Virus record (IMG/VR): IMGVR_UViG_2917886563_000007
Strand: one strand, 5' to 3'
Source of the DNA: a virus
Taxonomy: Duplodnaviria > Heunggongvirae > Uroviricota > Caudoviricetes
DNA length: 64,000 bases
This document shows, piece by piece, positions 8,207-64,000 of the stretch (position 1 is the stretch's first letter; every line of letters begins with the position of its first letter). Below the pieces are notes generated by a model. It was not told the origin of the DNA. It did not search any database and worked only from the letters and a program-made list of their open reading frames with translations. The position numbers and the translations under genes are program-made.

Positions 8207-8334
8207 TCTGATATTTCTCCTCTAGGGTCGTGAACTAATGAGGCGATTTTTATCCAAGTTTCAATATCTGTCAATAACTCTTTTATTTTTCAGGGTTAAT
8301 GTAACATATTGATATTTAATGAAATCAACGCGTA

Positions 8335-19512: not shown

Positions 19513-19808
19513 CGGGCAAAGAGGCAATTATTCATTACCTGGGGACGCATAAGAGCTTCTGTGCGCAGGACGTTGCTGAGGTAACAGGCGCAACAGTAAC
19601 CAGCATAAATCAGGCTGCGGCTAAAATGGCGCGGGCAGGAATCTTGGTCATTGATGGTAAGGTCTGGCGAACGGTGTATTACAGGTTCGCTACCAGGGAA
19701 GAACGGGAAGGAAAGGTGAGCACGAATCTGATTTTCAAGGAGTGTCGCCAGAGTGCCGCGATGAAGCGGGTTTTATTTGTTTATGCGGCGGGGGGAGGAA
19801 ATCAGTGA
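19509..19808 (+). CDS. ren: Ren-like protein
   Basis: 99-aa protein MTGKEAIIHYLGTHKSFCAQDVAEVTGATVTSINQAAAKMARAG... as lambda Ren. Confidence 0.85.
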   Translation: MTGKEAIIHYLGTHKSFCAQDVAEVTGATVTSINQAAAKMARAGILVIDGKVWRTVYYRFATREEREGKVSTNLIFKECRQSAAMKRVLFVYAAGGGNQ

Positions 19809-19904
19809 GGTTGACGATAACTAATATCTGGCGCTATATTCTGTGCGTTGCCGCAAAATCGGCACACGGGATTGGCGTCCCGGATAAGGTAATCGCGACT
19901 ACTA

Positions 19905-19928
19905 CACGCCGCGAGCGTGTTTTTTATT
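19905..19928 (+). terminator. Rho-independent terminator downstream of ren
   Basis: cacgc-cgcga-gcgtg hairpin followed by ttttttatt. Confidence 0.55.
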
Positions 19929-46600: not shown

Positions 46601-47064
46601 TTAAGGGAATGCTCGAGGCTACTCAGGTCAGAGGTGACTTCGTTAAAGCTGTATCTAAGCCATTCCCGAAAAAAACTGGCTCGTGGGGCGATACGGAAAC
46701 ACCAGGCGGGACGGTTACAGTCACCATTTACGATGATCATAACTTTGATCGCCAGATTATTATTCCGCCCATTATTTTTAATGGTGTGGCGTATGACGAT
46801 CCGGGGAGCGGTAATAACCCGGGAGGTACGCGATACACGGGTTATGGTTTTGAAGTTCGCAAAAACGGCGTATTAATCGCATCCAGAGAAACTAAAGGAG
46901 CCATTCCCGGTAGTTACAGTGCGGTTATTGATATGCCGAGTGGTGGTGGTAGTGTCACTCTGGAGTTTAAGATTTTCCAGAAAGGCAATCAGGGCGCAGG
47001 TAACATCACAGACTGTACGGTGATTGTGACCAAAAAAGCTGCTTCCGGTATCAGTATCCGTTGA
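43651..47064 (+). CDS. J: Central tail fibre / host specificity protein J
   Basis: 1137 aa [54 protein letters not shown] as lambda J. Confidence 0.95.
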
Positions 47065-47124
47065 AATATTTATAACCCCAATACGGGCGCCAGAAATGGC
47101 GCCTTTTATATTTGTGGAGTGAGT

Positions 47125-49494
47125 ATGGCAGTACAGATTTCAGGTGTGCTGAAAGATGGTGCGGGAAAACCAATACAGAACTGCACTATTCAACTGAAGG
47201 CAAAGCGTAACAGCACCACGGTACTGGTGAACACGGTGGCCTCTGAAAATCCGGATGAAGCCGGGCGTTACAGCATGGATGTTGAGTATGGCCAGTACAG
47301 CGTTATCCTGCTGGTTGAAGGTTTTCCGCCTTCACATGCCGGAACCATTACCGTCTATGAAGGTTCCAGTCCGGGGACGCTGAATGATTTTCTCGGTGCC
47401 ATGACGGAAGATGATGTCATGCCGGAGGCATTGCGCCGTTTTGAGGCTATGGTGGAAGAAGCAGCACGTAACGCTGAAGCTGCCTCTCAGAGCGCAGCGG
47501 CGGCAAAGAAATCCGAAACTGCAGCGGCATCATCGAAGAACGCGGCGAAAACCTCAGAAACGAATGCAGCTAACAGCGCACAGGCGGCAGCGGCCTCACA
47601 GACTGCATCGGCAAACTCCGCGACAGCAGCCAAAAAATCAGAAACCAACGCGAAAAATAGCGAAACAGCCGCAAAGACGAGCGAAACCAACGCAAAGTCC
47701 AGCCAGACGGCAGCGAAAACCAGCGAAACGAATGCCAAAGCCAGTGAAACTGCGGCGAAAAACAGCCAGGCTGCAGCAGCTGAAAGTGAGAGCGCGGCAG
47801 CCGGTTCTGCGACTTCAGCAGCCGGATCAGCAACTGCTGCGGTTAACAGTCAGAAAGCAGCGAAGACGAGTGAAACTAACGCAAAGTCCAGCCAGACGGC
47901 AGCGAAGACCAGCGAAACAAATGCCAAAGCCAGCGAAACTGCGGCGAAAAACAGTCAGGATGCAGCGGCCCAAAGCGAGAGTGCCGCAGCTGGTTCTGCA
48001 AGTGCGGCGGCTTCTTCTGCCACTGCATCAGCCAACAGTCAAAAAGCTGCAAAAACCAGTGAAACCAACGCAAAGGCGAGCGAGACTGCGGCGGCTAACT
48101 CGGCGAAAGCATCCGCTGCAAGCCAGACAGCGGCTAAAGCAAGTGAAGATGCAGCCAGGGAGTACGCAAGCCAGGCAGCTGAGCCGTATAAACAAGTTTT
48201 GCAGCCGTTGCCTGATGTGTGGATACCGTTTAATGACTCGATGGATATGATCACCGGATTTGGCCCGGGATATAAAAAAATAACAGTGCGCGATGATGTG
48301 GTCACTATACCATCCGACAAAATTGTCCCGTTTTCCCGCGCGAGTTCCGCGACCTATATCAATAAGTCCGGCGCTCTTACCATTGCAGAAATTAATGAGC
48401 CACGTTTTGAAAAAGAAGGGCTGTTAATTGAAGGGCAGAGAACTAACTATCTAAAAAATTCTAATACACCGGAATTGTGGTACTACCACAGTTTACTGGC
48501 GAAAGAGTATGGGGTTGATAATTACGGTTTTAATTATGCAACCGTCACCGTGACAGACAGTCTTGTAGGCACAACCAGTAGTTATCAGATTCATAGTGTA
48601 ACAGGAGAGAACAGGTTTTCTCTGTCCATCGGTGAAACCTGCACTTTTTCTGCCCGCTTTCGTGGAGTTAATTCACGTTGTCGCGTCCATATATCTCTTG
48701 TTATTGGCGAAAATGTTAAAACATCCGTTGATGTATGTCTGGAGCCAGATACAGGTGAGGTTAAGGCGTACGGTAATAAGGCGCTGGTGACATTCAGAAC
48801 GGAAAAACAGGGGGACTGGTGTTACTTTGAAACAACATATACCGCCGCAGAGAATATTGACGAAGTGGTATGCGGTTTTTTTATAACCAATCCTGAAGAT
48901 GGTGGTTTTTCTTCTGATTCGTCATTAACAATGACTACGCCGCAAATTGAAAAAGGGCCATGCGCTTCATCGTTTATTATTTCCGGAAACACACCAACCA
49001 CGCGCGCCAGTGATATGGTTATTTTTTCAACCAGAAATAACATAAGTTCTGTCCCTTTAAGCTGTCTTGTTGAAATACATAAAAATTGGGACTCTACGCC
49101 AAATCAGGCCCCACGAATTTTAACCACTATTGGCGTGGCGACTAATGATGAACAACTGGTATTTGCTTTCAGGAAGCCTACAAGTCCGGATGTAGAGCCT
49201 TTACCTTATGTTCAGTTTGGAGTGAGATCTGCATATCTTAGTCCATCTGTGAAGGCCGGGCGCAAAATGATTGCTGGTTTTGTCTGTAATAGCTCGACTG
49301 AATTTCGTTGCTGTTGTAATGGTTACCTGTCACCTGTTCAGACTTCGTCATGGAAGAATACCGGAGCTGCACATGAAATACGTATTGGGGGAACTTCTGC
49401 TGGCGGAGACCGCCACTTGTTTGGTCACGTTCGTAACCTGAGAATATGGCATAAAGAATTAACTGATGCGCAAATGGGGGAGAGTATTAAATGA
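47125..49494 (+). CDS. stf: Side tail fibre Stf (lambda-like N-terminus, divergent C-terminal region)
   Basis: MAVQISGVLKDGAGKPIQNCTIQLKAKRNSTTVLVNTVASENPDEAGRYSMDVEYGQYSVILLVEGFPPSHAGTITVYE as lambda Stf; Ala/Ser/Thr-rich repeats; ATG at 47125. Confidence 0.9.
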   Translation: MAVQISGVLKDGAGKPIQNCTIQLKAKRNSTTVLVNTVASENPDEAGRYSMDVEYGQYSVILLVEGFPPSHAGTITVYEGSSPGTLNDFLGAMTEDDVMPEALRRFEAMVEEAARNAEAASQSAAAAKKSETAAASSKNAAKTSETNAANSAQAAAASQTASANSATAAKKSETNAKNSETAAKTSETNAKSSQTAAKTSETNAKASETAAKNSQAAAAESESAAAGSATSAAGSATAAVNSQKAAKTSETNAKSSQTAAKTSETNAKASETAAKNSQDAAAQSESAAAGSASAAASSATASANSQKAAKTSETNAKASETAAANSAKASAASQTAAKASEDAAREYASQAAEPYKQVLQPLPDVWIPFNDSMDMITGFGPGYKKITVRDDVVTIPSDKIVPFSRASSATYINKSGALTIAEINEPRFEKEGLLIEGQRTNYLKNSNTPELWYYHSLLAKEYGVDNYGFNYATVTVTDSLVGTTSSYQIHSVTGENRFSLSIGETCTFSARFRGVNSRCRVHISLVIGENVKTSVDVCLEPDTGEVKAYGNKALVTFRTEKQGDWCYFETTYTAAENIDEVVCGFFITNPEDGGFSSDSSLTMTTPQIEKGPCASSFIISGNTPTTRASDMVIFSTRNNISSVPLSCLVEIHKNWDSTPNQAPRILTTIGVATNDEQLVFAFRKPTSPDVEPLPYVQFGVRSAYLSPSVKAGRKMIAGFVCNSSTEFRCCCNGYLSPVQTSSWKNTGAAHEIRIGGTSAGGDRHLFGHVRNLRIWHKELTDAQMGESIK
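47692..48069. repeat. Two tandem copies of a 189-bp (63-codon) unit inside stf
   Basis: gcaaagtccagccagacggcagcgaa(a/g)accagcgaaac... occurs at 47692 and again at 47881, in frame. Confidence 0.8.
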
Positions 49495-49772
49495 AAGATT
49501 TAACACTCAAATTTGCAGACAGGGCCGACTTTTCGGCCTTCATGGATAGCACGGGCTATTATGATGACGAGTCGATGCAGGATGATATTCTTATTGACGT
49601 GATAGGTAACGTGTACAAAGAAACCGGAGAACTTACTGAAGATGGCGAGCCGGTATGTGTTAAGGAAGACGGATATTTTGTAAACATGCGCATCATTAAT
49701 GATGTGAAAACACCGTCAATATTCGATGAATACGTGGTTGCTGTTGAGCATCAACTTCGTGGCTGGATGTGA
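49491..49772 (+). CDS. Hypothetical small protein between the two tail fibre genes (possible fibre assembly factor)
   Basis: 93-aa acidic ORF translationally coupled to stf. Confidence 0.4.
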   Translation: MKDLTLKFADRADFSAFMDSTGYYDDESMQDDILIDVIGNVYKETGELTEDGEPVCVKEDGYFVNMRIINDVKTPSIFDEYVVAVEHQLRGWM

Positions 49773-49781
49773 GGAAGAAAA

Positions 49782-50822
49782 ATGGCTACATCGACAGTAA
49801 TTCCTGATGACATCAAAACGCTAAAATCCGATGTTAGTAAACTAAAAACTGATCAAGGAAGCTATGCAACAAAATCATATGTAGACAATAAAACAACATG
49901 GAATAGTTATTGTAATGTAATCTATGATCAAAAGTCATTGCCCACAACTGGAACTATATTTAGCGGTAAGATGCACTTGTCAAATAAGACAGGAGAAACC
50001 GAAAACGCTTATAGTGAGATGTACACCAGAAAAAATATTGACGGCACTAAAGATACAATGACAAGGATTGTCACACACAATGGAACAAAAGGTATCTTCT
50101 GGGATTTTAGCGATCTTTACGGTGGGACATTGATTTTCCCAGGAAATGAAGGTTACTTGAAAATGGGTAAGTGCCTCATGTCTTATGGGAATCGTGTTGA
50201 TAACGCCATGATTAAATTTGATTACACAGACACATTACAAATCAAATATGCTAATCATGGGTCAACCATGACATTAAATACACAGGGAACCGCTCACGCT
50301 GGCGTAACAACTCGAATATGGGGCAATTCTAGCCGCCCGGTTGTTTATGAAGTTGGCGTAGATGAGGCTCTGTATATGTTCTACGCACAGAAAACTACCA
50401 GCAATACCTACGAATTAACGGTTAACGGCGCGTGTAATGCAAGTGCATTTAATCAAGGCTCTGACCGGGATCTGAAAGACAATATTCAGGTGATCGATAA
50501 TGCAACCGACCGCATTCGTAAAATGAACGGCTATACATACACGCTTAAAGAAAACGGTATGCCTTACGCTGGTGTTATTGCACAAGAAGCCCTGGAAGCC
50601 ATCCCCGAAGCCGTAGGGTCTATGATGAAATATCCAGACGGTGGGAGTGGATTAGATGGAGAAGAAGGTGAACGGTATTACACTGTAGATTATTCTGGTG
50701 TTACTGGCTTGCTTGTTCAGGTAGCCAGAGAGTCAGACGACAGAATAACAGCACTGGAAGAAGAAAACGCAGAATTAAGACAAAGATTATCTGCAATTGA
50801 GGCGACGCTTGTGTCTAAATAA
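49782..50822 (+). CDS. Second tail fibre/receptor-binding protein with C-terminal intramolecular chaperone (peptidase S74-like) domain
   Basis: C-terminal SDRDLKDNIQVIDNATDRIRKMNGYTYTLKENGMPYAGVIAQEALEAIPEAV plus terminal coiled coil fits the auto-cleaving chaperone domain of tail fibres and endosialidases. Confidence 0.75.
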   Translation: MATSTVIPDDIKTLKSDVSKLKTDQGSYATKSYVDNKTTWNSYCNVIYDQKSLPTTGTIFSGKMHLSNKTGETENAYSEMYTRKNIDGTKDTMTRIVTHNGTKGIFWDFSDLYGGTLIFPGNEGYLKMGKCLMSYGNRVDNAMIKFDYTDTLQIKYANHGSTMTLNTQGTAHAGVTTRIWGNSSRPVVYEVGVDEALYMFYAQKTTSNTYELTVNGACNASAFNQGSDRDLKDNIQVIDNATDRIRKMNGYTYTLKENGMPYAGVIAQEALEAIPEAVGSMMKYPDGGSGLDGEEGERYYTVDYSGVTGLLVQVARESDDRITALEEENAELRQRLSAIEATLVSK

Positions 50823-51454: not shown

Positions 51455-52357
51455 GTGCATGCCAACATGATTGAATACCTAAATATTTTCATACAGGTTG
51501 TTGAGCAGGGTAGCTTCACTAAAGCTGCTGATGTACTTCAGATCCATCGCCCCACCGTGAGCAAAGCAATACAGCAGATAGAGCATGATCTGGGTGTAAA
51601 ACTCATTTATCGCACAACCCGAAAGCTGAGCGTTACTGCTGAAGGGGATGAGTTCTATCATCATGCCAGGCATGTCCTGGCCGAAGTTAATGACATGATG
51701 GCCAGTTTTTCACCGACTCTTCCACCGCGAGGACGCCTGAGACTTGATGTGCCCCTGGCGCTGGCGCATTCCATATTGATCCCTAATCTTAGGCATTTTC
51801 AGACACTGTATCCAGGTATTGAAGTTGTGCTGGTTTCTTCGGATAAAAAAACTGATTTGATCACGGAAGGCGTAGATTGCCTTATCCGCCTGGGTGCGCT
51901 TCAGGATTCTAGTTTTATATCCAGACGTCTTGGTGACATCCGGATGGTTACCTGTGCAGCCCCGTCTTACCTGCAGCAGCATGAGCGGCCAGAAACACTT
52001 GCGGATCTGGATAAACATCGGGCAATTAACTTTTTTAGCGACCACAGTCGTGACGTCATGGAATGGAAGTTTATCGAAAACGGGAGCATTGTTTCGCTAC
52101 GTCCTGCGGGCAGCCTGCTGGTTGATAATTCCGATATTCTGCTTTCCTGTGCTCTGGCTGGTCTGGGCATTATCCAAGCTACCTATGATGCCGTTGCTCC
52201 CCATATTGCTTCCGGCGCTCTTGAAGAGATTCTGCCGCAATACCCATCGGTGTCAAAGCCCGTGTCAGTGATGTATCCCGACAGGCGCTACCTTTCTCCA
52301 AAAGTGCGCGTCTTTATCGACTGGTTCAGTGATGTTCTGGCCACGCAGATCCGCTGA
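51455..52357 (+). CDS. LysR-family transcriptional regulator (cargo)
   Basis: N-terminal HTH IFIQVVEQGSFTKAADVLQIHRPTVSKAIQQIEHDLGVKLIYRTTRKLSVTAEG; start may be ATG 51467 rather than GTG 51455. Confidence 0.85.
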   Translation: MHANMIEYLNIFIQVVEQGSFTKAADVLQIHRPTVSKAIQQIEHDLGVKLIYRTTRKLSVTAEGDEFYHHARHVLAEVNDMMASFSPTLPPRGRLRLDVPLALAHSILIPNLRHFQTLYPGIEVVLVSSDKKTDLITEGVDCLIRLGALQDSSFISRRLGDIRMVTCAAPSYLQQHERPETLADLDKHRAINFFSDHSRDVMEWKFIENGSIVSLRPAGSLLVDNSDILLSCALAGLGIIQATYDAVAPHIASGALEEILPQYPSVSKPVSVMYPDRRYLSPKVRVFIDWFSDVLATQIR

Positions 52358-52506
52358 AGCAGGCGGATTGTTAATGGATAATTAATACTGAAGTTCCCTC
52401 TCAGCTATTTCTGGTGTGTTTGTAACAACGTAGATTGTTCACAAATGATTCGGGCATCCCTTCGGCATTATTCTGAAGGAGTGCCTTTAACTGAAGAGAG
52501 CTGAAT

Positions 52507-53499
52507 ATGTCTAAAGTTATTACCTTTAACCGTACCGGAGGCCCGGAAGTGCTGGAATTTGTTGATGTACAGGTGCCTGCGCCGACAGCGGGTGAAGTGC
52601 AGATCCGCGTACATGCGATAGGTATCAACCGTGCAGAAATCATGTACCGCAACGGCCAGTATGTTATTGAGCCGGAATTTCCGGCACGTCTTGGTTATGA
52701 AGCGGCTGGCGTTGTGCAGGCCGTAGGTGAGAATGTTGATGAGTTTACCATTGGAGATCTGGTCAGCGTTATCCCTTCATTTATGTTTAATGAATACGGT
52801 ATGTACGGTGAAGTGGTCAATGCACCTGTGCATGCTATCGTGAAGCATCCTGAAAACCTTTCTTTTGAGGAAGCCGCTGCAAGCTGGATGATGTATGTCA
52901 CCGCTTATGGTGCGCTGGTTGAATATGGCAATCTTCAGGCTGGTCAGAATGTTGTGATCCGCGCAGCATCAAGCAGCGTAGGTCTGGCTGCCATACAGAT
53001 AGCTAACATGCTGGGTGCAAACCCAATTGCACTCACTCGGACCTCTGAAAAAAGTGAAATGCTACTGAAAGCTGGCGCAGCTGCCGTCATTGCTACTGCA
53101 GAGCTGGATATGGTTGCTGAAATCAATCGAACAACAGATGGCGTAGGTGCCCATATTGTTTTTGATCCCGTCGGCGGGCCGGACGTGGCAAAACTGACGC
53201 AGGTGATGGCATCACAGGGCATGTTTTTCCAGTATGGCGCGCTCGATAGCCGTGACATGCTTGTGCCTGTATTTAATATTCTCGGTAAGCATCTCACTCT
53301 GCGTGGATATGAGCTGTTTGAAATCACGACTGATTCTGAAAAAATGGCGCGCGCAAAATCCTTCATAACAGAAGGCTTACGAGCTGGCAAACTGAAACCG
53401 GTCATCGATAAAACGTTCCCGTTCGAAGAGATTGCAGACGCCCAGCGCTATATGGAGGCCAATGGCCAGGTAGGCAAAATAGTCGTGACCGTTGAGTAA
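52507..53499 (+). CDS. Medium-chain dehydrogenase/reductase family quinone oxidoreductase-like protein (cargo)
   Basis: 330 aa; GroES-like N-terminal domain and nucleotide-binding motif AASSSVGLAAIQIA typical of NADPH:quinone reductase / zinc-type ADH superfamily. Confidence 0.8.
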   Translation: MSKVITFNRTGGPEVLEFVDVQVPAPTAGEVQIRVHAIGINRAEIMYRNGQYVIEPEFPARLGYEAAGVVQAVGENVDEFTIGDLVSVIPSFMFNEYGMYGEVVNAPVHAIVKHPENLSFEEAAASWMMYVTAYGALVEYGNLQAGQNVVIRAASSSVGLAAIQIANMLGANPIALTRTSEKSEMLLKAGAAAVIATAELDMVAEINRTTDGVGAHIVFDPVGGPDVAKLTQVMASQGMFFQYGALDSRDMLVPVFNILGKHLTLRGYELFEITTDSEKMARAKSFITEGLRAGKLKPVIDKTFPFEEIADAQRYMEANGQVGKIVVTVE

Positions 53500-53830
53500 T
53501 CCTTACCACAGCATTTTATAAATGAGCCTGGTGAAGCCTGGATATTATCCAGGCTTCGATGCAATGGCTCCGGCAGGTACTGCCTTCGATTTCCACGACT
53601 TGAAAATTAAATGTCCTTTTCTCGCTTAAAGGGGGACCTTCAGATCCAAGAGGCTGTCCGCTTGGTGCCAGGAGCGGACGTTACTAACGTGATGATGAGA
53701 TCATCTACGAGAAACAAGTCATATGGGATATATTTCCAATAGAATATGAAAGATTAAACCCTGACTGGAGTTCATCCATTATTTATTACAAGTGAGATTT
53801 TATACAAGAAAAAGGATAAATATTAATTTT

Positions 53831-54274
53831 TCAGAAACCTCTAAATTCATGTAATTTTGAAGATAGCTCTTCATTCTTTTTTATGAAGTCTAATAAATAC
53901 TCTTCAGTTATTATTATTTGATTTCCATCCTTATACTTAGTTGCTAACATCTGGTTATCATTATCTGATGAGATACCTTCCGGAGCGGTGATGCGAAAAC
54001 TATGCATTATTCTATTGCGGATAATGACAAGCTCTTCAAAAAGAGTAGCAATAGTATCGTCTGATTTTTTTGAAATGGTTTCTTTGATAGGGATTTTAAG
54101 CTGGCCAGAAGTTTTATCTATTAACGCATACCAGTTGTAACTTTCATCATCATCTTCCCTTAAAATATTTTCAATGATAAAACCATTGTTGGAGTTGAAA
54201 ACACAAACGGCAGTGCCAACAAGTTCTCTATATTTTTTTGACGGTAATGATTGGCGCGAAAAAACTTCATACAT
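53831..54274 (-). CDS. Hypothetical protein, attR-proximal AT-rich cluster (contains an Rx4H motif; HEPN-like?)
   Basis: 147-aa ORF with gaggg RBS; motif RNRIMH near the centre; AT-rich. Confidence 0.5.
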   Translation of the reverse strand: MYEVFSRQSLPSKKYRELVGTAVCVFNSNNGFIIENILREDDDESYNWYALIDKTSGQLKIPIKETISKKSDDTIATLFEELVIIRNRIMHSFRITAPEGISSDNDNQMLATKYKDGNQIIITEEYLLDFIKKNEELSSKLHEFRGF

Positions 54275-54439
54275 GATAATTTAACCCTCATGAAAGTAGG
54301 TGATAATATCAGAGTTGAACTCTGCTCCGGCAGTGGAGCGCAACCAAATTCGCAGCATTTTCAGTCCTATCCTAACTCTGCTCACTGTATGTCACAAGCG
54401 GAATTTAATAACATCAGGCTATCCCCTTAGCAGGACTGG

Positions 54440-54697
54440 TCACCAGTTATCTTTTGATAAATCAAGGGCTGCAGATTGAATCCATCGCTCATAGGCAGTT
54501 CCCAATTGCCCTATGCTTTGGATACCAGGGATATTCATTGTCAAAATAGCTTGATGGTTAACCTGTTTCGCCCCCCATAAATACCCATACTCTACGTACC
54601 CTCTGATTTTCAAAGCCCTACAAATTACTTCTTTTCTAAAAAAAGCATCAAGTTGAATGTTTTTTGTATAATTAAAGAGATGGTTCTCAGCATTCAT
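54440..54697 (-). CDS. Hypothetical protein; possibly the C-terminal part of a frameshifted gene continuous with 54687-55169
   Basis: 85-aa ORF whose ATG lies 11 nt inside the upstream ORF, just after an A7 (plus-strand T7) tract. Confidence 0.4.
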   Translation of the reverse strand: MNAENHLFNYTKNIQLDAFFRKEVICRALKIRGYVEYGYLWGAKQVNHQAILTMNIPGIQSIGQLGTAYERWIQSAALDLSKDNW

Positions 54698-55169
54698 CTC
54701 TATGAAGTCTTTTTTTATTTTGTATTACTGACAACACTTTCTCTTTATTTAACACTCTACCATAATACGAGGTTCCATCATTGCAGTGTGCGTATATCTC
54801 ATTGAAGTAAACGGATGCTCCTCGCCAATCAGCGAAGCTCAAGGACTCCCCGCTCAGGTGGTTATGATGCAATACAAAGTTAGGCCGATTACTGATTGAG
54901 TCCAGCAATGCTGAAGAGGGATTTGCTCGATTCTCTAGTTTTTCTGTACTGAATTCGAGTAGCGGACCTTTAGGGCAATGAAGTGAAGCAGAGTATTCCC
55001 AGCGTGCACACTCACCGGCTTCGACTAACAATAGTGCGGTTATTTGTTCTAAGTCAGTCATGTTTCTTAACATGCTTAGCTCCCATAGCTTATTGACTAA
55101 TGTATATCGGCAACACGACTCCACATCTTGAGATATCTCTTCATTTTTTGAATCCAGATGTGAGCACAA
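54687..55169 (-). CDS. Hypothetical protein with a divergent JAB/RadC-like HNH..S..D motif
   Basis: 160-aa ORF; motif LHHNHLSGESLSFAD with an upstream Glu (LLVEAGE); the match to JAMM/RadC is imperfect (one residue short). Confidence 0.4.
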   Translation of the reverse strand: MCSHLDSKNEEISQDVESCCRYTLVNKLWELSMLRNMTDLEQITALLLVEAGECARWEYSASLHCPKGPLLEFSTEKLENRANPSSALLDSISNRPNFVLHHNHLSGESLSFADWRGASVYFNEIYAHCNDGTSYYGRVLNKEKVLSVIQNKKRLHRDEC

Positions 55170-55508
55170 TCGTTTAGTTGCATCTTTATTACTTTTTTCA
55201 CACTAGGTATGTCAATTTATAACGAAATTTAAACTTCCGCTCTTCGCTCATAGCAGACATTCACTACAGTTATGGCAGAAAGGTATGCATGTTGGGTGTG
55301 GGGAAGTAGTGAAAGAAAAGAAGACTGCTGAGCCGTTTGTCGTCACGTTTATCTTCATTGGCTATGCGAGTCGTAATACAAGATGGGACAAAACTGAGAC
55401 ACATAAGGCCTCACAATGGCTTGCAAGGCTTTACATGTTTTGATGTGGTGGGACGTGTGAGCGCAGTGTTGATGGGGTAATGCTTTGAATTAGAATCGGA
55501 TTCTTATA

Positions 55509-55556
55509 ATTCGTAATGCGAAGGTCGTAGGTTCGACTCCTATTATCGGCACCATC
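55509..55556 (+). repeat. tRNA-Thr 3' fragment, second direct repeat (attR of lambdoid prophage)
   Basis: attcgtaatgcgaaggtcgtaggttcgactcctattatcggcaccatc repeats the 9834-9884 sequence; no tRNA 5' half upstream. Confidence 0.8.
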
Positions 55557-57656
55557 AAGAAAATCAATAACTTAGCTTAACTTCTCTAAGAAATTGTATC
55601 TTCTGTTATCACTTACAAACGCCTATACGTTGTTATGGGCTTTGGTAGTGTAACACGTATGGGCGAGTAGTTCCCAGGCTCAACCTCGTAACAAGTTCCT
55701 TTGAAGCTGGAAGACGTGCCACCGTCTCTAAACCTTCTACCAAAACTCTTAGCAAGATGTTCCACACCTGGCGCGGTGTCCAATGATGCTACACGTCGTG
55801 AGACGTTGCAGAGGATAAACAGGCTAAATGATGGGAAGAGTTTTAAGTGCAATAGTGGATTAAAGCCCACCTCTTCAAAACCTAACTTGATCGGGAAAGA
55901 ATCAAGCTCTAGCACGGTTTCGTCCACCGGAGTACAACGGGTGCCTGATAAGAGAAGAACTGCTAAGACTTCATAGCTTTTGTGAAAAAGCCCTTTTTAG
56001 TGGATACGCCTACGGCGCTTATTTTTTGGTATAACCATCAAAGGCGCTTTATGGCTCCTATTGTCTTGAAAATGTATCTTTACTTGTATTGTGTTTTATG
56101 CGTAGTCTCCCTGTGTAGTATGTAACTTGTTAATTTTCATATGAATACAGAGGCACACGATGAAAAACATTGCAGCTATAAAACGTAATAACCGCAAGAT
56201 TCACGCTCGTAAGTTCCTGTCTACGCCAGAAGGAAAAGCCTGGCTAGAGCGTAAACAGAGAGAGAACGAAGAAAGAAAACTCCTTAGTGAGTTGAAATGG
56301 CTTAGAGAGGATTTCTGAAAATCTCCAGAACGCAACAGGACGCATTCTAACGCTGTTTTCATTGCTTGGTATAGGAATGTACAGGTGATGTGTGTTTAAT
56401 GCGTCTGTGAGCTTGTTTTGTGCCTTATTTTGCATTTTCATAATGCAGAAGAGAACACGGAAAGCCTTAAAATTAATTATTGGGGTATTTAAGGCTATTT
56501 TCAGGGTATTTAAGGGTATTAAACTTGATTTAATTGATTAAAATATAAACAGATAGTTCTGTATCTTATTGATTTATAAGGTTGTTTTTAAATAAAGGTA
56601 AATAAAAAATAAATAGCCATAAATAGCTATAAATACATCTAAATACCTATATCCCTTCCCTTATGGCTAGATTGCGAGAAGTGCTTAACGCGATTTTCAG
56701 CGCCCCCCGATCTGGAAAATCCAGAATCCCCAAATATCAGCAAGGAATTTTCTTGCGTAATCAACATCGTTTTTACCTATTAAATCATTACACAGAAAGC
56801 CTTTCTGTAATGTCTCTCACTAAACTTTCACTAAACACGAGAATGATCGGTTTTATGTCGGATCAGATGCTAGAAACAGCACCACGTCTCACAAGGGCTG
56901 TAAGCGATGAAACCAGTGTTTATGCGGGTGCAGGTCAAAATATAGGCCAAAATCCATTTAACATAATAAACGTAATATGCACTAAGGAACACATAGAACG
57001 CCTTGAATTGATGTATCAGGGGAAAAGTGATGGATTTTTTACGTAGGAGCACGAGAGGGCTTATGTTGACTTTTGTATGCTATGAAATATAATTAAAGGT
57101 TTTTTTTGTTTTTATCGTGTGATGTAGTGGATTACACAGGGGAATAGATTAAATGGTGTTCTGTTTATACAGGTTTATTTGTTAGATCAACAATTTGGCA
57201 TTTCTAAACAGATGTTTGAACGTTGCCAAATGTCTTGACAACACAAGAAAAGGGCTTGCTATGCCACGCATTACACGAAATAAGGCTGTAAAAACAAAAT
57301 AAATTTTAAAATTTGCACAAACGAGAAAACTCGTTCAGAAACAAGCAGAACAATTTTTAGCCAACAATTTCTGATGGTGTGCTGTAAGCCGCATCACACA
57401 AGGTTTTGCGAAAGTGATGTAAAAGTGAAGAAAGTAAGAATTGCACTTTTAAGCTGCTTTTCATTGAATTTTTTAGTATGGAATTACACAGGGAATAGAG
57501 AGCATTATTCTATGATTTACACAGGGAATATAGGGGGATTATGGCACACACATAGAAAGGCATTACACAGGGTGAGTGCTATGTGATGATTGGTAGTAAC
57601 GGTAGGTCACTGTGAGCTACCCCCTATCAAGTCTAACAGGGGTTTATATGTAGTGG

Positions 57657-58874
<1,218 letters not shown>

Positions 58875-58885
<11 letters not shown>

Positions 58886-59681
58886 AATTTACTATGCCAC
58901 TACAGAGATACTTCCTACGACCTTGATCACCCATCATCGAATCGACGCCGCTTCTATAGGCCCATTCTGTAATGTTGTTCATCTGGTTAACGTCTACACC
59001 GCCCAGCTTCGCACGGCTATACAATTCACCCAGCGTTTCAGCATTCGCAAAGCTGTTAGTAACAAATTCAGAGGCTTTGCTCATAGCCATATACGTAGCG
59101 CCAGCGCCTAAGCCACCCAGCATAACAGCCGCAGCACCGCCGCCAATACTCCCGCTACCCTTAACAGGTGCATAGGCTTTAGCGTGAGCGTTACGATTGC
59201 CATTAATCTTACGTTGTTGCTGTTGTAGGCGTTTCATTTGGCTATTCATACGTGCCAGACTAATAGCTCCTCTTTCATATTGGAGGGCAATTTCTCTAGC
59301 CTGTGCAATAGCTTTATATTGTTCCGCTACAGAAAGGCGGTGCAATGCACTAATGCTTGATCCAACGTCTAAAAGCTTTAATTCTGCCTTCTCTTTGCGT
59401 GCTGCCAGGGCTTTTTGTTCTCTTGCAACTACACGTTGAGCGGCTAATTGTGCTTTAGCATTAGCTTTATCAGCCTGTTCTTGCTTTTTAGCAATATCGT
59501 CTACGTCTTTTTTTGCTTTAGCGGTTGATTGTTTATGTGTCTTAACACGCAATTCTATATCTTTCACCGCCGCCATTTGTTTACGAAGTTTTTCTACTTC
59601 TGCTTTTGCTTTCTCTAATGATGGTCGATCAACCTGGAAGGTGACAACGTTTGATAAGCGGCTGACGTTAAGTTCTAACAT
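58875..59681 (-). pseudogene. Phage structural gene (tape-measure-like, coiled-coil, Lys/Ala-rich) truncated by the IS3-family insertion
   Basis: 268-codon ORF running from 59681 into the IS end, where the frame terminates; no continuation on the other side of the IS. Confidence 0.5.
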
Positions 59682-59715
59682 GCTAATTGTTTCCCTGTAT
59701 TATGATTGTTGTTTA

Positions 59716-59913
59716 TTATTGTTTTTTAGAGCAATAGTATTGAATTGCTTCGAAAGTGCTGCACCCAGTCTGAAAGACACGCTGGCGCACATTATTTGCA
59801 TCAATTTCTAAAAGGCGGCAAAGCGCCGATGTGTTTATAACTGATTCCTCGCTAATAGCTGCCAGTTCTTTTACAGCCTTAAGAATAAAGGATTGTGGGT
59901 TTTCTGTATTCAT
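59716..59913 (-). CDS. Hypothetical small protein
   Basis: 65-aa ORF between the capsid-like gene and the disrupted gene. Confidence 0.35.
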   Translation of the reverse strand: MNTENPQSFILKAVKELAAISEESVINTSALCRLLEIDANNVRQRVFQTGCSTFEAIQYYCSKKQ

Positions 59914-60064
59914 TGGTTTTCTCTCACATACATATTTTTATTTGGGTTTGTAGACAGTAGAAAAACAAAAAGGGCAAAGAGATTCGTTACTGTATTTGCG
60001 CCTACAGGTTAGTTAATCCCTTTACCCTTATTGCCCCGATGGGGAATCGTCTATTAACGCTTTA

Positions 60065-61096
60065 TTACGCAGCAGATCCGAAGATGATAGCTTGCGGAAT
60101 GTTGTTTACTGGCAGATAAGATGTCTCAGTAACCACAGATGGGAATTGGAATTCATCCTTGATTAGATATTGGTGATGCAACACGGCATCTTGACCTAAC
60201 TCAGCATGACGCACACCAACGCCGCTATGAAGCTGGTAACACTGTGCCGCTTTATCCATTACCGGAACAATTGCGAAACCGTTCTCTCCGATGTGAGCAA
60301 CAATCTCAGGAAACATTGACACATCAATAACAGTGATCCCACCAATCTGGAAAGAGTCATAGGCTGGGTTAGAATCAACCATACGGGTAAACAGGGCCGT
60401 AGCACTCGCATCGCCTGCATATTTCACCATGTCACTGATCAGCGGGTTAGATGACAAACCATCAGCAGCAGCGCCAGCAGCAAAGATAATTACACCAGTT
60501 CGCTTTGCAGCAAGACCAGACCCCAGCTTTTCACTCTGTAAGCGCACCGCTTTACGAATAGCAAGGAACGGGTTAACAGTAGTCGATGCAAAGTCGATAG
60601 CGGGTACCGTGGTTTTAGCCTGACCGTCGAGGAAGTCGAGATCACCTTGTCCGGCATATTCAGATTCAACTTTCAGGCCCAGCAGCGCGGTAATCAGATC
60701 CACTTCAACACGGTTTGCGTGTGAACGGTAATGAGCCTCAGAGAAATCATTAACCGCTACCAGCATAGCATCAGAACGGTTTGGATATTGGCGGCTGTAT
60801 TGTTCCAGGTCACGAGAAGTAACAGCGTTAATACTGCCGACGTGTTTCATCTGGAAAAGTTTGTTTGACCATTCCTGACGTTTAGAGGCGTTCCAGTCGC
60901 TTTGAGCGTAAGGCGAGGTTTCCCCAGCTACCTGCACAAACTGATCAATCAGGTCGGTAAGAAGAATGCTGTTTTCTGTATGATATTGCACATCGAACAG
61001 ATCGAGATTAGTAATCAGGGTATTAAGTGCATTCTCATAAGCAAAAGGAGTTACTACCGCAGTATTAACGCCAAAATATGTTGATAAATCATTCAT
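60065..61096 (-). CDS. Putative major capsid protein (lambda E-like size and context)
   Basis: 343-aa ORF directly downstream of a ~127-aa gene, the same arrangement as lambda D-E; no direct sequence match recalled. Confidence 0.4.
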   Translation of the reverse strand: MNDLSTYFGVNTAVVTPFAYENALNTLITNLDLFDVQYHTENSILLTDLIDQFVQVAGETSPYAQSDWNASKRQEWSNKLFQMKHVGSINAVTSRDLEQYSRQYPNRSDAMLVAVNDFSEAHYRSHANRVEVDLITALLGLKVESEYAGQGDLDFLDGQAKTTVPAIDFASTTVNPFLAIRKAVRLQSEKLGSGLAAKRTGVIIFAAGAAADGLSSNPLISDMVKYAGDASATALFTRMVDSNPAYDSFQIGGITVIDVSMFPEIVAHIGENGFAIVPVMDKAAQCYQLHSGVGVRHAELGQDAVLHHQYLIKDEFQFPSVVTETSYLPVNNIPQAIIFGSAA

Positions 61097-61110
61097 TATT
61101 ATTTTCCTTG

Positions 61111-61494
61111 TTAAGTCGTAGGGATCGCAAGTTCTTCATAACCAGCAATTACAAAGCCGAGAGATTGCAGTTTTGCAATAACACTTGCCTTTTCCATACT
61201 GTTAAATTCAATCCCATCTTCAGCCAGAATAACGAAAGTAGGATGTGCAACCACTATGCTTTCCTGTCCTTCATAAGCCGGTTCAACTGCTACGTGAGCT
61301 ATATCAGAAGCGGTTGTTGCTTTGGTGCCATCGGCTTTCAGCAAAGCCCCGACAATAAGATCGTCAGTGAGAGGTGAAGCCAGTTTGACGAGGCGATCTT
61401 GCAGCACTGGATCAGCAGCGTAAGCTACTACCTTACAGCGTGAACGGGAGTTATCCGCATTCACTGCTTTTAATTTTCCATATGGGTTAGCCAT
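61111..61494 (-). CDS. Putative head decoration/scaffold protein
   Basis: 127-aa ORF immediately upstream of the capsid-like gene. Confidence 0.35.
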   Translation of the reverse strand: MANPYGKLKAVNADNSRSRCKVVAYAADPVLQDRLVKLASPLTDDLIVGALLKADGTKATTASDIAHVAVEPAYEGQESIVVAHPTFVILAEDGIEFNSMEKASVIAKLQSLGFVIAGYEELAIPTT

Positions 61495-61498
61495 AAGA

Positions 61499-61738
61499 TT
61501 ATTTTCCTTTCAGTTGTTTAATTTTAGATTTAAGGGCATCAGCAAGACTAACCGCATCAGCCGATTTAAATAATTGAGCAGTGGTAGAACGAAGACTTTC
61601 GGGAGTAACTCCCAACAGTGCGGCAACCTTAATGAGGTTTTCATCACTAACAATCATCGTTTCCCCGTCTTTGCTGATAATCATTTCTTGTTTCATAAAT
61701 AACGTTCCTGTTAGTGCCAGACAAATAAAAAGCCCCAA
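61499..61738 (-). CDS. Hypothetical small protein
   Basis: 79-aa ORF (likely start MKQEMIIS) coupled to the downstream gene. Confidence 0.35.
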   Translation of the reverse strand: MGLFICLALTGTLFMKQEMIISKDGETMIVSDENLIKVAALLGVTPESLRSTTAQLFKSADAVSLADALKSKIKQLKGK

Positions 61739-62680
61739 TGCCGTAAGAGGTTAATTCTGACCAGCAAAGGGGCTTTAACGTGCGGGCAATTACATAATTG
61801 ATAAGTTAAACTATAAGAGGATTAAACATATCAGCAAATACACTTTTTAAATATACTTGATGATATGCTTAAAGGGTGAATAGATACTCCTGAAAACATG
61901 CTCTTAGGAAAACATGCGGAATCAATCAGGAATATCTATTCGGGGCGCGGTGGCCAACCGCTATCTTTCATGGTGTGGATGCACCAGTCAGATTTTAAGG
62001 AATCACTATTCCAATCTACTCACAGATTAAATTTTTAATAATGATTAACTACACCAACAGTAATCTACCGTTTCAGAAAATCGTTTTTACAACCAAAGCT
62101 TATAGATCCGCATTCTATAAAACCCGTTTTGCTATCAATATTTCCAAAGTTTATTGCACCATTCTTAGCTAAACTCTCTCTGCTTGCGGCTAACGCTATG
62201 CAGATGATTGTTTTTGACAACAACTTAATAGATTATTCTGTTACTAACTTCTGTCATTAAATAATAGTTTAATGATGTTAGTAAATAGTTATAAAATATA
62301 ACTATCAGTGTAAGGCTCTTTAATGTTTTCTGACAAAATAAGGAGCTTTAGGATAAGCATAGATGAAAAATAAGAGCGGGAAGGGCAAGGAGATAACACC
62401 TACCCGCTTTTATCAAAATTAAGCACAATGCCTAACAACATTCATCAACACAACGTAGAAACAATCAACAATCAAAGAGGGAGTTATGATTATTCTAAAA
62501 CTTCTTGAGAGATGGAAGGTAATATTTGTTAGAGGTTAATGCCACTCAACCTTTGAGGCTATCACCTTCCATATGCAGGGATTTATGACAGTAGAAGGAT
62601 TAACACCAGTCAAAACCTTTTTATCTACCCCTAATATCATTATATAATGATATCGTTATAAATGCAAATGATTTTCATTA

Positions 62681-62989
62681 TCACTTAGAAGAAATAGCAC
62701 TTTTTGCTAAATCATCTACTAATTGCTGAATCTCTTCACTTGCAGCCTTTAACGTGCTGGCGGTGTATGTGATGATTTGAGTGCACAGCCTGGCATCGTC
62801 CTCTGATAGCTCTAAATCGCTCACCAGAGAGATAAAATCGTCAAGGCTTACATTCACCTTCATTAAGCTAATAACGCATTGAGAGAGCGTGTAATCGCAT
62901 AAATCTGAATAGGCTTGATTTATTCTTGTTTGTAGTGAGATAGTCAGATCTAAAAGTTGTTCCATTGCATTGCTAATATCTTCTTCCAT
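62681..62989 (-). CDS. Hypothetical protein
   Basis: 102-aa acidic ORF, AT-rich. Confidence 0.35.
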   Translation of the reverse strand: MEEDISNAMEQLLDLTISLQTRINQAYSDLCDYTLSQCVISLMKVNVSLDDFISLVSDLELSEDDARLCTQIITYTASTLKAASEEIQQLVDDLAKSAISSK

Positions 62990-63234
62990 TATGCGGCTTC
63001 TCCTTGTAATGCATCATTAATCATATTCAATACGATGTTAAAAGGTGTCTTGAGCGTCAGCACTTCATCACGATAACGCTCTAATGCTTCGTAGTCTTCT
63101 GTTTCTTTTGCCAGTCGGATTAACTCAGCATAGTTTTTTGCATCAGACAGGATCATCTGAAATAATTGTGTTTCTTGAATATAGCCAATCATTATTTTTC
63201 CTTTTTCGAATATTTTCATTGGGCGCTTATACAT
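62989..63234 (-). CDS. Hypothetical protein
   Basis: 81-aa ORF coupled to the downstream ORF. Confidence 0.35.
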   Translation of the reverse strand: MYKRPMKIFEKGKIMIGYIQETQLFQMILSDAKNYAELIRLAKETEDYEALERYRDEVLTLKTPFNIVLNMINDALQGEAA

Positions 63235-63249
63235 ACACCCATCATTTTA

Positions 63250-63633
63250 TTAGTTAGAACGTTTGTTAGAAGCTAATGTATCTTCTAAATGAGCCATCAG
63301 ATCGACTTCCGATGCACCACCTACACAATTATTGAAAGCGTTAAATCCCAAAAAATGATGATAGGAGCTAAACCCTAAAAGCTGCCAACGTTTCAGAGTG
63401 CCATCAGAAATGATAGTTTGTTTTCTTGTTCTTGGGCGAAAGTAAACGCCTGGCATTGACTGGATTATTTCTAATTCTTCATCGCTTAATTCAGGGGATT
63501 CTGCTTCAAGAATAAATATTATCTCTTCCCCTGGAATTTCGTTATTGGTGTGTGTCGGTGGACGTTGTCTTGTTGAATTGAAGTTACTGTTTTTTTCAAT
63601 ACGTTTTAAGTTGTTCTTTTTCTTTCTTCCCAT
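63250..63633 (-). CDS. Hypothetical protein
   Basis: 127-aa ORF with basic N-terminus MGRKKKNNLKRIEKN. Confidence 0.35.
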   Translation of the reverse strand: MGRKKKNNLKRIEKNSNFNSTRQRPPTHTNNEIPGEEIIFILEAESPELSDEELEIIQSMPGVYFRPRTRKQTIISDGTLKRWQLLGFSSYHHFLGFNAFNNCVGGASEVDLMAHLEDTLASNKRSN

Positions 63634-63730
63634 TTTTCCCTCTTTTTATGTGGATTATAAAAACTGGACGCCATTGTTACGATGAATATCGCCATAAATG
63701 CATTTGCCATATGTATTGCCCAATCTGTTG

Positions 63731-64000
63731 TTATTGATTGTTTGTGATAAACAATTCAAAATCTTTGTTTAATTTCAAAAGACGAAATGTAGTGCTGTTA
63801 ATCCCTTCATAATCCAGCACACCGAACGATGTAAAATGGTTTAACCAATGATTCACATGTTGTGCGCTGTAGCCGCCTAAACTACAAAAGCTAACCACTG
63901 TCGGGGGTGAGAACTCTATGTCCAAGACAGCTTTTAAAATGTGGTATCCGCTCTCAGTTATTTCAATAGTTTTGTTTCCTATAGTGATGTTATAAGTCAT
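63731..64000 (-). CDS. Hypothetical protein (may extend beyond window end)
   Basis: 89-aa ORF whose start codon sits exactly at the window edge. Confidence 0.3.
   Translation of the reverse strand: MTYNITIGNKTIEITESGYHILKAVLDIEFSPPTVVSFCSLGGYSAQHVNHWLNHFTSFGVLDYEGINSTTFRLLKLNKDFELFITNNQ

Follow-up and report, generated by a model that had tools for sequence, protein, structure and literature searches.

Organization of the island end

The window (the whole stretch of 64,000 nucleotides that was analysed) contains the left end of an integrated island. This end is marked by an att repeat at 55509–55554 (plus strand), a 46-nt copy of the 3' part of tRNA-Thr (thrW), and a second copy of the repeat lies at position 9837. 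The same att sequence forms the 3' end of an intact tRNA-Thr gene in APEC O1, where a homologous island of 12.2 kb directly follows the tRNA gene, is bounded by a 20-nt att repeat, and encodes a tyrosine integrase. This ~12-kb island is present in ~750 of 5426 complete E. coli genomes (~14%). The satellite-type mobile element supposed in the first-pass annotation is thus borne out by an integrase island at tRNA-Thr with homologs in E. coli. Identity among the island copies is 94–99%, so that arguments from conservation have limited power. Searches for plasmid relatives of the region return essentially none, and no known RNA family is found in 53000–64000 at E values up to 0.1, or at the APEC O1 locus apart from its tRNA.

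The sole RefSeq-annotated gene in the stretch is a conserved, basic 52-aa ORF (56160–56318, plus strand; WP_000788777) that has no Pfam match and whose homologs, at 67–100% identity, occur in E. coli, Klebsiella, Enterobacter and Raoultella. The Klebsiella and Enterobacter relatives sampled are without the phage block, noncoding core and TTACACAGGG arrays described below, and therefore offer no cross-genus test. A gene-free control region follows, ~2.8 kb long in the intact APEC O1 island, of which the window retains the left ~1.3 kb (56319–57648). It is broken at 57648/57649 by an IS3-family insertion sequence (57649–58904, minus strand; orfA with HTH_Tnp_1 and orfB with rve) bounded by TGTAGTGG...CCACTACA and lacking a 3-bp target duplication (ATA vs GAG). 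Beyond the IS lies the inverted interior of an L004-type island (58905–64000, minus strand; 98% identity to locus L004 from 14572 down to 9480), which runs from the 5' part of the tape-measure-like gene via the capsid gene to the gene after rep. All of the repeats considered here lie to the left of 57649 and are present in the IS-free relatives L001 and L034, which excludes the possibility, raised earlier, that they are part of the IS terminus. We read the repeats as elements that act in cis, placed in the control region at the island's attL end.

A 127-aa ORF of unknown function had also been noted between the repeats. The open frame exists (56663–57046, plus strand, 127 codons), but it is not a gene: substitutions fall on the three codon positions in a 9:8:9 ratio, the frame is shifted in L026, interrupted by a stop in L016/L022 and altered at its ends in L017/L027, and the sequence is replaced in other relatives. 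It has no Pfam or PHROG match and is unannotated in RefSeq. Over the first 78 bases it is instead a conserved copy of the probable site at which phi92-like phages cut their terminal repeat.

Of the 13 annotated products of the APEC O1 island, 11 were scanned against Pfam and 9 of those also against PHROGs. Those recognised comprise only the integrase, a Rep-like wHTH protein (phrog_270, 9.6e-10; 222–230 aa), a major capsid protein (PF03864), a tape-measure-like protein (phrog_16051, 2e-51) and a Dit-like protein (PF21821). No terminase or portal is recognised among the scanned products, and the two unscanned ORFs, of 70 and 76 aa, are too short for a large terminase. The island does not fit a Gram-negative PICI (int, alpA, pri-rep, packaging-redirection genes), which has an AlpA-type regulator and a primase-replicase fusion: no scanned product has an AlpA or primase domain, and the Rep is a wHTH protein. 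It does have the hallmarks of a satellite: its own replication module (Rep and the arrays that covary with it), an incomplete set of virion and packaging genes, and a size of 12.2 kb, within the 10–18 kb typical of P4, PICI and PLE satellites, against 148.6 kb for phi92. The Dit-like protein is 58–61% identical (E about 1e-77) to the tail tube initiator of Justusliebigvirus phages, and the tape-measure-like and capsid proteins are ~35% and ~24% identical to those of the same phage group. The island looks like a phage satellite of virulent phi92-type phages, on which it would depend as helpers. A literature search covering satellites of phi92, rV5, Stephanstirmvirinae and Phapecoctavirus and islands at thrW returned no description of it, which is not proof of novelty.

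Two repeat families

Two repeat families had been reported from the control region, and both are found there and are not the product of chance. Each consists of clustered direct repeats, and the first flanks an AT-rich spacer in an iteron-type layout. In family 1, a left array (56483–56520, plus strand) of GGGTATTTAA, described earlier as a GTATTTAAGG family, has a 10-bp period and 3.7 copies by Tandem Repeats Finder, with exact copies of GGTATTTAAGG at 56484 and 56505. It is separated by the spacer, 88 bp long (56521–56608; defined from the sequence and its inverted pairs), from a right array (56609–56648, plus strand) of four ATAAATAGCC-type 10-bp units that is inverted relative to the left array and represents its reverse complement (TAAATACC / GGTATTTA; inverted pairs I10, I16 and I17). 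The same four units can be written as ATAAATAGC-type repeats, a 9-mer that is itself not rare in the window (22 matches vs 17 expected); the non-random property of these units is their tandem 10-bp phasing. For AA/TT 10-bp periodicity, the 70-nt segment beginning at 56477 ranks second in the 64 kb (top 0.014%), and the copy number of the right array in relatives ranges from 3 to 5, changing only by whole 10-bp units. In alignments of the relatives, nucleotide conservation of the arrays is no higher than that of their flanks.

Family 2 consists of asymmetric sites of ~17 bp, with the extended form ATTACACAGGGAATAKAG and also denoted ATTACACAGGGAATA. Exact copies of its TTACACAGGG core occur in the 64 kb only at 57132–57141, 57484–57493, 57517–57526 and 57563–57572, all on the plus strand; ~0.12 copies are expected for a 10-mer on both strands, and four within 440 bp is far beyond chance. 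With up to one mismatch there are 8 matches against 3.1 +/- 1.6 expected, a count that none of 100 shuffles reaches. The first-pass annotation gave the repeat as TTACACAGGG(A/G); the four copies stand, and the terminal (A/G) fails at the fourth, the following bases being G, A, A and T. Two further copies extend the family: a degenerate plus-strand site at 57394–57403, 90 bp upstream of site 2, which reads TCACACAAGG here and TTACACAAGG in most relatives and is conserved in most lineages, and an inverted site, CTACACAGGG (56109–56118, minus strand), located 42–51 nt upstream of the 52-aa ORF and kept in L001 and L005. The TTACAC hexamer reaches 4.2 per kb in the noncoding region of the island, compared to a background of 0.5–0.8 per kb.

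The copies differ in their distribution. Site 1 is specific to the lineage of the window's island and site 3 is likewise lineage-specific, site 2 is shared by all the E. coli lineages sampled (TTACATAGGG in L006, TTACATAAGG in L010), and site 4 reads TTACACAGAG in most relatives; copy number and last bases vary between close relatives. Within the E. coli island family, the best-conserved noncoding stretch is a core (57296–57500; 75–96% identity, all lineages) that the sites bracket. They lie beside the likely origin, downstream of a strong sigma-70-like promoter match (TTGACT-16-TATAAT, 11/12; 57066–57093, plus strand) that is a consensus match only, points rightward into the TTACACAGGG sites and is also present in L001. 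The core tolerates indels and is therefore not coding, and folding reveals no conserved RNA structure in it (-7.7 kcal/mol, 0 compensatory pairs). The two core-bracketing sites are kept across E. coli lineages with all four Rep types then sampled; the upstream one is missing from L023 and L027, and in L006 both carry the same C-to-T change. Two assignments of the sites were considered and rejected. First, integrase arm-type sites would be specific to one integrase and lie within a few hundred bp of the att core; these sites lie 555–2020 bp from the att copy at 55509–55554, and the core sites are also present in L006, at tRNA-Gly. Second, as a promoter or other site of the helper phage they would be expected in phi92, where TTACACAGGG is unenriched in 1–50 kb (the third of the genome scanned) and TTACAC is absent from the terminal region.

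A phage genome-end block in an exchangeable cassette

Immediately after the right array lies a 78-bp block (56662–56739, minus strand, in reverse orientation relative to the phage map) that corresponds to the terminal-repeat boundary of phi92-like phages. It consists of TTGCGAGARGTGCTTAACGCGATTTTCAGCGCCCCCCGAT, ~25 variable nt, and CCCAAATATC. The window's copy matches phi92-like (Stephanstirmvirinae) phages at 43 of 46 nt (93.5%), and that of APEC O1 is identical to phi92 over 40 of 40 nt. The block is invariant among phi92, Klebsiella phage phi1_175008 and Citrobacter phage Tr1, which belong to three genera, and three islands, while the phage flanks are unalignable; what island and phage share is precisely the stretch that does not vary between the phage genera. 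The annotated 343-nt terminal repeat of phi92 ends inside the block, and a prefix/suffix test places the terminal-repeat boundary of the Klebsiella phage inside it as well. The presence of a repeat boundary within the block in two phage genera is most simply explained if the block is an end-forming cut site, which would place the cut near 56685/56686 (TTA|AGC in phage orientation).

Among the islands, only 2 of 89 nt vary at the block, compared to 25 of the 299 nt that follow; the 235 nt before it contain 36 variable sites and a 10-nt indel. Its variability is 4–7 times below that of its flanks. It is found in 428 genomes, with one copy per locus, a median of 1 place per genome, and no annotated feature beneath it. 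A near-identical, single, noncoding copy of a phage end site is present in an island in which no large terminase is recognised. The island and the phi92 terminal region also share a second, collinear block of 22 nt, which 9 island loci contain. No copy of the consensus of the other (left-end) phage junction is found in the island, where the overlap is only the 8-nt CTTTTAAG, and family 1 arrays have no counterpart upstream of the block in phi92-like phages. GGTATTTAAGGCTATTTTCAG resembles the block core at 15/21 positions in this window and at 17/21 (81%) in APEC O1, which is on par with chance pairs in AT-rich DNA, and the resemblance is kept as a lead only. A search of species-representative genomes recovers the exact block from two MAG contigs only. 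None of the 29 metagenome contigs carrying the block is circular or ends at the cut site, for which assemblies are a poor test.

The block and both 10-bp arrays form a swappable cassette (56424–57110; L005 vs L004 and L001) that islands otherwise nearly identical to one another either carry or lack as a whole. Its presence is the sole difference between L005 and L004, which have the same Rep. Full-length copies occur at 12 loci and partial copies at a further 6, arrays and block are found together in 413 of the 428 carrier genomes, and the cut-site cassette is present in ~8% of complete genomes. Mosaic breakpoints fall directly after the block, at 56739, and the block is kept when the adjoining DNA is swapped; in L009, L014, L019 and L025 a serine-recombinase gene replaces everything after this position. 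The noncoding part of this alternative cassette has no phage match. L004-type islands without the cassette are common, and it is therefore dispensable for persistence.

Since the block spans the phi92-like terminal-repeat boundary, the cassette is read as a mimic of the helper packaging and cut site. A competing explanation is that the cassette is a replication or transcription signal of the helper (an origin, primer or early regulatory site) that the island employs to sense or use the phage, with the TTACACAGGG sites serving as operators for an island repressor. The location of the block in phi92, in the noncoding leader upstream of the first genes, would suit such a role, as would a different noncoding block of the island that matches the terminal-repeat leader of T5-like phages and lies upstream of the rep-operon promoter; the inverted TTACACAGGG-like site ahead of the 52-aa ORF and the promoter-like site upstream of site 1 are consistent with operators. 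However, the repeat boundary within the block in two phage genera is most simply explained by an end-forming cut site, and the phi92 counts of TTACACAGGG and TTACAC given above also argue against it. This explanation appears unlikely, if the least so of the alternatives considered.

Rep-specific arrays and the likely origin

A third set of repeats begins at the right edge of the control region. Alignment identifies GTAACGGTAGGTCACTGTGAGCTA followed by TACCCCCTATCAA (57590–57648, plus strand) as the first units of a Rep-specific iteron region, which the IS-free relative L034 continues past the position of 57648 with about five TACCCCTATCAA-type units (arrays at L034 7680–7860). Five array types pair with five types of Rep N-terminal domain, whatever the C-terminal domain. 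The actual Rep iterons are therefore likely to begin at about 57590, with the remainder lost to the IS, and this is the likely origin.

The first-pass annotation had suggested that the two repeat families themselves form an origin, or else a binding array for a recombinase or regulator. As an origin, one or both families would be iterons bound by the island's own initiator, with unwinding of the AT-rich spacer. Several features resemble such an arrangement: the inverted arrays of family 1 around their 88-bp spacer recall SaPI origins, family 2 directly adjoins the Rep-specific arrays, and the island encodes a wHTH initiator. However, neither family follows the initiator. Both stay the same across four different Rep DNA-binding domains: the cassette is found alongside N-terminal types 1–4 and the core TTACACAGGG sites alongside all types, whereas the neighboring arrays from ~57590 switch with the N-terminal domain. 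Further, L004-type islands have no family 1, yet carry the same Rep as L005. The family 2 sites accompany all Rep types and so are not iterons of Rep. The earlier description of a satellite control array was thus right in kind, and the repeats are kept in the homologous E. coli islands as it required, while the origin was misplaced; that either family is the origin is improbable, and the TTACACAGGG sites may yet be a regulator-binding array.

A model for the control region

Taken together, the preferred account, which we hold to be correct by a modest balance of probability, is that family 1 and the block act as a packaging and cut-site mimic of the helper, that family 2 is regulatory or architectural, and that the origin lies at ~57590. 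Several observations speak against this account: the missing left-end junction, without which the making of a full terminal repeat is hard to explain; arrays that are conserved no better than their flanks and that the phages lack; the commonness of islands lacking the cassette; the Klebsiella and Enterobacter relatives, which have neither block, core nor TTACACAGGG arrays; the variation of the TTACACAGGG sites between close relatives; and the metagenome contigs, none of them circular or cut-site-ended. Most likely, the terminase of the helper phage would recognise and cut island DNA at the block, such that island DNA is packaged. The phased arrays may bend the DNA beside the cut site, or provide a surface there for an architectural protein of the host or helper. 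The TTACACAGGG sites are putative asymmetric binding sites, whose binder is more likely to be encoded by the island or the host than to be Rep, and they may control transcription into the adjacent origin, or its firing. Finally, it is very unlikely that the region has no present function, the block being a neutral recombination relic and the repeats the result of slippage in AT-rich DNA that spread with a recently expanded island: the near-identity of the island copies limits the power of conservation, the arrays are conserved no better than their flanks and drift in copy number, and the window's island is itself IS-rearranged, but the segment shared with phages is exactly the phage-invariant part and 4–7 times less variable than its flanks, the block is found in 428 genomes and kept when adjoining DNA is swapped, array changes hold an exact 10-bp register, and four exact 10-mers fall within 440 bp.

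A broader proposal, put forward tentatively and with somewhat less than even confidence, is that an undescribed and widespread family of E. coli satellites parasitises virulent phi92-like myoviruses with direct terminal repeats by means of an exact copy of the repeat boundary in a plug-in cassette, and that the gene-free region collects cis signals from more than one family of virulent phages (phi92-like and, in the intact island, T5-like). If so, E. coli would harbor a counterpart to PLE and ICP1 in Vibrio, a satellite system whose helpers are large virulent phages like those in therapy cocktails. Comparison alone would also have pinpointed the end-forming signal of phi92-like phages, for whose packaging signals a literature search found no description. 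The ~2.8-kb stretch, blank in RefSeq across hundreds of genomes, would then be crowded with functional DNA sites: a mimic of a packaging site, sites for a regulator, and an origin of modular build. A false ORF is also removed from the annotation, and the repeat richness of the AT-rich region is explained without invoking an IS.

Comparison with known systems

Repeated or bent DNA adjoins the cut site in several phages: lambda cosB contains an IHF bend, and the pac sites of P1 and SPP1 have repeated boxes on both sides of the cut. The island is similar in that its 10-bp arrays end 18 bp from the block; it differs in having no sequence similarity to these sites and arrays on one side only, and its bend is predicted from phasing alone. 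SaPI origins consist of two iteron sets flanking an AT-rich stretch. The arrays from ~57590 resemble the iteron origins of SaPI/PICI and lambda-type elements as short, initiator-specific repeats beside AT-rich DNA. Unlike in those origins, families 1 and 2 do not follow initiator specificity, and the likely origin lies ahead of the rep operon, in a long stretch without genes, rather than in or just after rep.

Some satellites carry copies of the packaging site of their helper, including P4, which has the cos site of P2, and cos-type SaPIs such as SaPIbov5. Like P4 and SaPIbov5, the island is a small integrative element with no recognised terminase and a noncoding, near-identical copy of a helper cut site (here 40/40 nt, phi92). 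Unlike P4 and the SaPIs, it would have as helpers virulent myoviruses of ~148 kb whose direct terminal repeats measure 343 bp, and not temperate cos or headful phages, it copies just one of the two repeat junctions, and the site resides in an exchangeable cassette with phased arrays that are absent from the phage. SaPIbov5 also encodes a capsid-protein homolog, Ccm (PMC8569155), and the island similarly has its own capsid-protein homolog. Another parallel is PLE of Vibrio cholerae with its helper ICP1 (PMC10002752, PMC8096241). Like PLE, the island sits in the chromosome, is apparently linked to a virulent myovirus, combines an initiator of its own with a repeat-type origin, and appears to encode proteins that act on the helper virion. 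Unlike PLE, to which it has no sequence relationship, it has a tyrosine integrase at a tRNA gene and its own capsid, tape-measure and Dit homologs.

Genomic setting of the repeats

Window positions 55509–57624 match E. coli APEC O1 at 97.6% identity; the APEC O1 stretch starts within tRNA-Thr (thrW) and is the opening of a 12.2-kb island between att repeats. That island opens with tRNA-Thr and a 52-aa ORF, followed by ~2.8 kb in which no gene is annotated. Small ORFs come next, then a 229-aa wHTH replication initiator (Rep); these are followed by a major capsid protein, a 609-aa tape-measure-like protein and a Dit-like tail protein, and finally by a tyrosine integrase. Relatives of the noncoding region occur in ~750 of 5426 complete E. 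coli genomes and are nearly all chromosomal. No intact tRNA gene is present within the window, but the 3' end of tRNA-Thr occurs twice as a 46-nt copy (9837–9882 and 55509–55554), with ~45.7 kb between. This duplication indicates tandem integrations at thrW, with the repeat-bearing island the last of several elements. The interval includes lambdoid tail genes (43651–50822) and a LysR/oxidoreductase pair (51455–53499). Immediately left of the second att copy, three AT-rich ORFs (147, 85 and 160 aa; 53831–55169, minus strand) probably belong to the preceding element as cargo.

An IS3-family element with ends TGTAGTGG...CCACTACA occupies 57649–58904, and in the IS-free relative L034 the sequence runs uninterrupted through the junction; the repeats are therefore island DNA, and the possibility raised in the first-pass annotation that they belong to an IS terminus is rejected. 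To the right of the IS lies the interior of an island of the L004 type, inverted and 98% identical, beginning inside the tape-measure-like gene, and the island in the window has thus been rearranged. The IS ends lack a 3-bp target duplication; this and the inverted interior are consistent with an inversion between a pair of IS copies. Under this model, the missing origin and rep would lie just past 64000.

The phage block, the noncoding core and the family 2 sites described below are missing from the sampled Klebsiella and Enterobacter relatives. In these relatives (L035–L042) the stretch between a 50-aa ORF and rep, devoid of genes in E. coli, is filled with cargo: a type IIG restriction-modification enzyme, a Dam methylase, an nSTAND/AAA ATPase, a YafQ toxin, resolvases and a small tyrosine recombinase. 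The position is a putative defence-type hotspot.

The 127-aa open frame at 56663–57046, annotated in the first pass as an ORF between the repeats, is rejected as a gene. Substitutions among its 13 distinct copies are distributed 9:8:9 by codon position, showing no codon-position bias; a frameshift affects one copy, stops interrupt two, and the ends of two are changed. Four other loci have a serine-recombinase gene in place of everything after 56739, and the frame has neither a match in Pfam or PHROG nor a RefSeq annotation.

Iterons and family 2 sites

Right of 57585 the repeat set differs in every lineage. Rep proteins are two-domain mosaics, and repeat type tracks the N-terminal wHTH half regardless of the C-terminal half: N-types 1 to 4 accompany arrays of TAGGTCAYWGTGAGCTAGGGGG, CCCTAACAGAAWWCTGTTAGACACCCCCACAG, GTAACGATNNGTTACAT and CCTAGGAAATGAGTTCC, respectively, and a fifth N-type (L034) accompanies TACCCCTATCAA. 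These arrays are the likely iterons of the initiator, and only their first units (57590–57648) are retained in the window.

Both repeat families reported in the first pass are present where it placed them, and its reading of them as an origin or binding array of a satellite or plasmid-like element holds insofar as they lie in control DNA of a satellite-like element; the origin iterons, however, are the Rep-tracking arrays and not either of the two families. Family 2, TTACACAGGG, has exact copies at 57132, 57484, 57517 and 57563 and nowhere else in the window; with up to one mismatch there are 8 matches against 3.1 expected, a count that no shuffle reaches. Overlooked in the first pass were two further copies, one degenerate (57394) and one inverted (56109–56118). 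The 57394 and 57484 sites bracket the most conserved noncoding core (57296–57500). All sampled E. coli lineages retain the latter, and most retain the former (L023 and L027 do not); since the lineages compared site by site, with that of L034 left out, jointly carry Rep N-types 1–4, the core sites are not Rep iterons. One relative, L006, has the identical C-to-T change in both. The remaining copies are specific to the lineage of the window island. Intact relatives have a second ATTACAC group, mostly inverted, beyond the iterons. TTACAC density in the island's noncoding region is 4.2 per kb versus a background of 0.5–0.8 per kb; the phi92 terminal region has no TTACAC. No dyad symmetry is seen in the extended site, ATTACACAGGGAATAKAG. 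The core, which accommodates indels, has no conserved RNA fold, and a strong promoter-like site (57066–57093) points into the family 2 sites. On this positional evidence, we take them to be putative binding sites of a protein that influences transcription or the function of the origin.

Two further noncoding blocks of the APEC O1 island are lost from the window. The first, ~46 nt (GCTTTTATCAAAACCTCGTTAGAACGCGTTTTAGAGCGTTTTAGAC; L001 16964–17020), lies ~90–150 nt upstream of the rep-operon promoter, also occurs at L038 11852 and L040 11792 and in island relatives from Klebsiella, and resembles noncoding sequence of T5-like phages (Demerecviridae). Counted over phages of all kinds, 217 records were matched, including KPN4 (91.5%, E 7e-7) and SE24 (8209–8257, just past gene A2 near the left genome end). 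The second (L001 16080–16600) is a GC-richer ~500-bp block in which a long hairpin, TTCTTCGTG...CACGAAGAA, is accompanied by five mostly inverted ATTACAC sites; it has no Rfam match and occurs only in lineages rich in ATTACAC sites.

The family 1 arrays and their cassette

Family 1 consists of two 10-bp-period arrays detected by Tandem Repeats Finder. The first (56483–56520) contains exact copies of GGTATTTAAGG at 56484 and 56505; the second, its reverse complement, is built of ATAAATAGC units from 56609 and was extended to 56648 by eye and repeat search. The 70 nt from 56477 rank second across the whole 64 kb for 10-bp AA/TT periodicity. Several observations place the arrays in an exchangeable cassette. 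First, the 98.7% identical islands L005 and L004 differ solely there: L005 has the equivalent of 56424–57110 (arrays, phage block and pseudo-ORF) and L004 a serine recombinase. Second, arrays and block occur together in 413 of 428 carrier genomes, and with every Rep type. Third, array copy number ranges from 3 to 5, changing always by whole 10-bp units. In the aligned phages (phi92, phi1_175008 and Tr1) the block has no arrays upstream. We infer that the arrays belong to a packaging-site cassette, in which they would have an accessory and probably architectural role.

The 183-aa serine recombinase (PF00239; L004 6246–6797, L014 1105–1655, L006 6245–6796) occupies the cassette position in many relatives and in some abuts the phage block. 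phi92 also encodes a serine invertase, gp053 (19493–20155).

Relationship to phi92-like phages

A search of phage genomes with 55900–57650 returned a single match, 46 nt (56666–56711) at 93.5% to phi92-like phages, within the block at 56662–56739. The matched phi92 positions, 318–363, span the point where the 343-bp left terminal repeat is annotated to end, and the APEC O1 copy is identical to phi92 at 40 of 40 positions. When three islands were aligned with phi92, Klebsiella phage phi1_175008 and Citrobacter phage Tr1, TTGCGAGAGGTGCTTAACGCGATTTT was invariant, as was CCAAATATC ~45 nt beyond it (CCCAAATATC in all except phi92), and the flanks were unalignable. The Klebsiella phage record, checked independently, has an exact 343-nt terminal repeat ending at the same block position within 1 nt. 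With the repeat end inside an invariant block in two phages, the block appears to be the sequence where phi92-like phages form a genome end, and we infer that the phage terminase cuts there. In the islands the block is 4–7 times less variable than its flanks, and mosaic breakpoints fall directly after it.

The phi92 terminal noncoding region (147160–148269 and 1–698) also contains repeated AATGATAATCATT motifs, which we take to resemble the E. coli Fur box. Two direct repeats of ~27 nt, with ACACACCCCC at their ends, lie there upstream of the boundary block.

The phages' left-end junction has no copy in the island, and metagenome contigs yielded no excised or cut island forms. Such a satellite is not described in the literature searched, an absence that is not proof of novelty. 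A second noncoding block of 22 nt, AATTAAAAATAAGSGGTCTAAA, is common to the phi92 terminal region (147334–147355) and nine island loci (L001 16738–16759), collinear with the boundary block and sharing its orientation, without recurrence in phi92 1–50 kb. Among proteins, the Dit-like protein is 58–61% identical to the Justusliebigvirus tail tube initiator (E ~1e-77), the tape-measure-like protein ~35% identical to its counterpart and the capsid protein ~24% identical to that of the same phage group. The most interesting feature of the region, invisible to the first pass, is what would be, at the start of the ORF, a copy of the terminal-repeat cut site of a putative helper.
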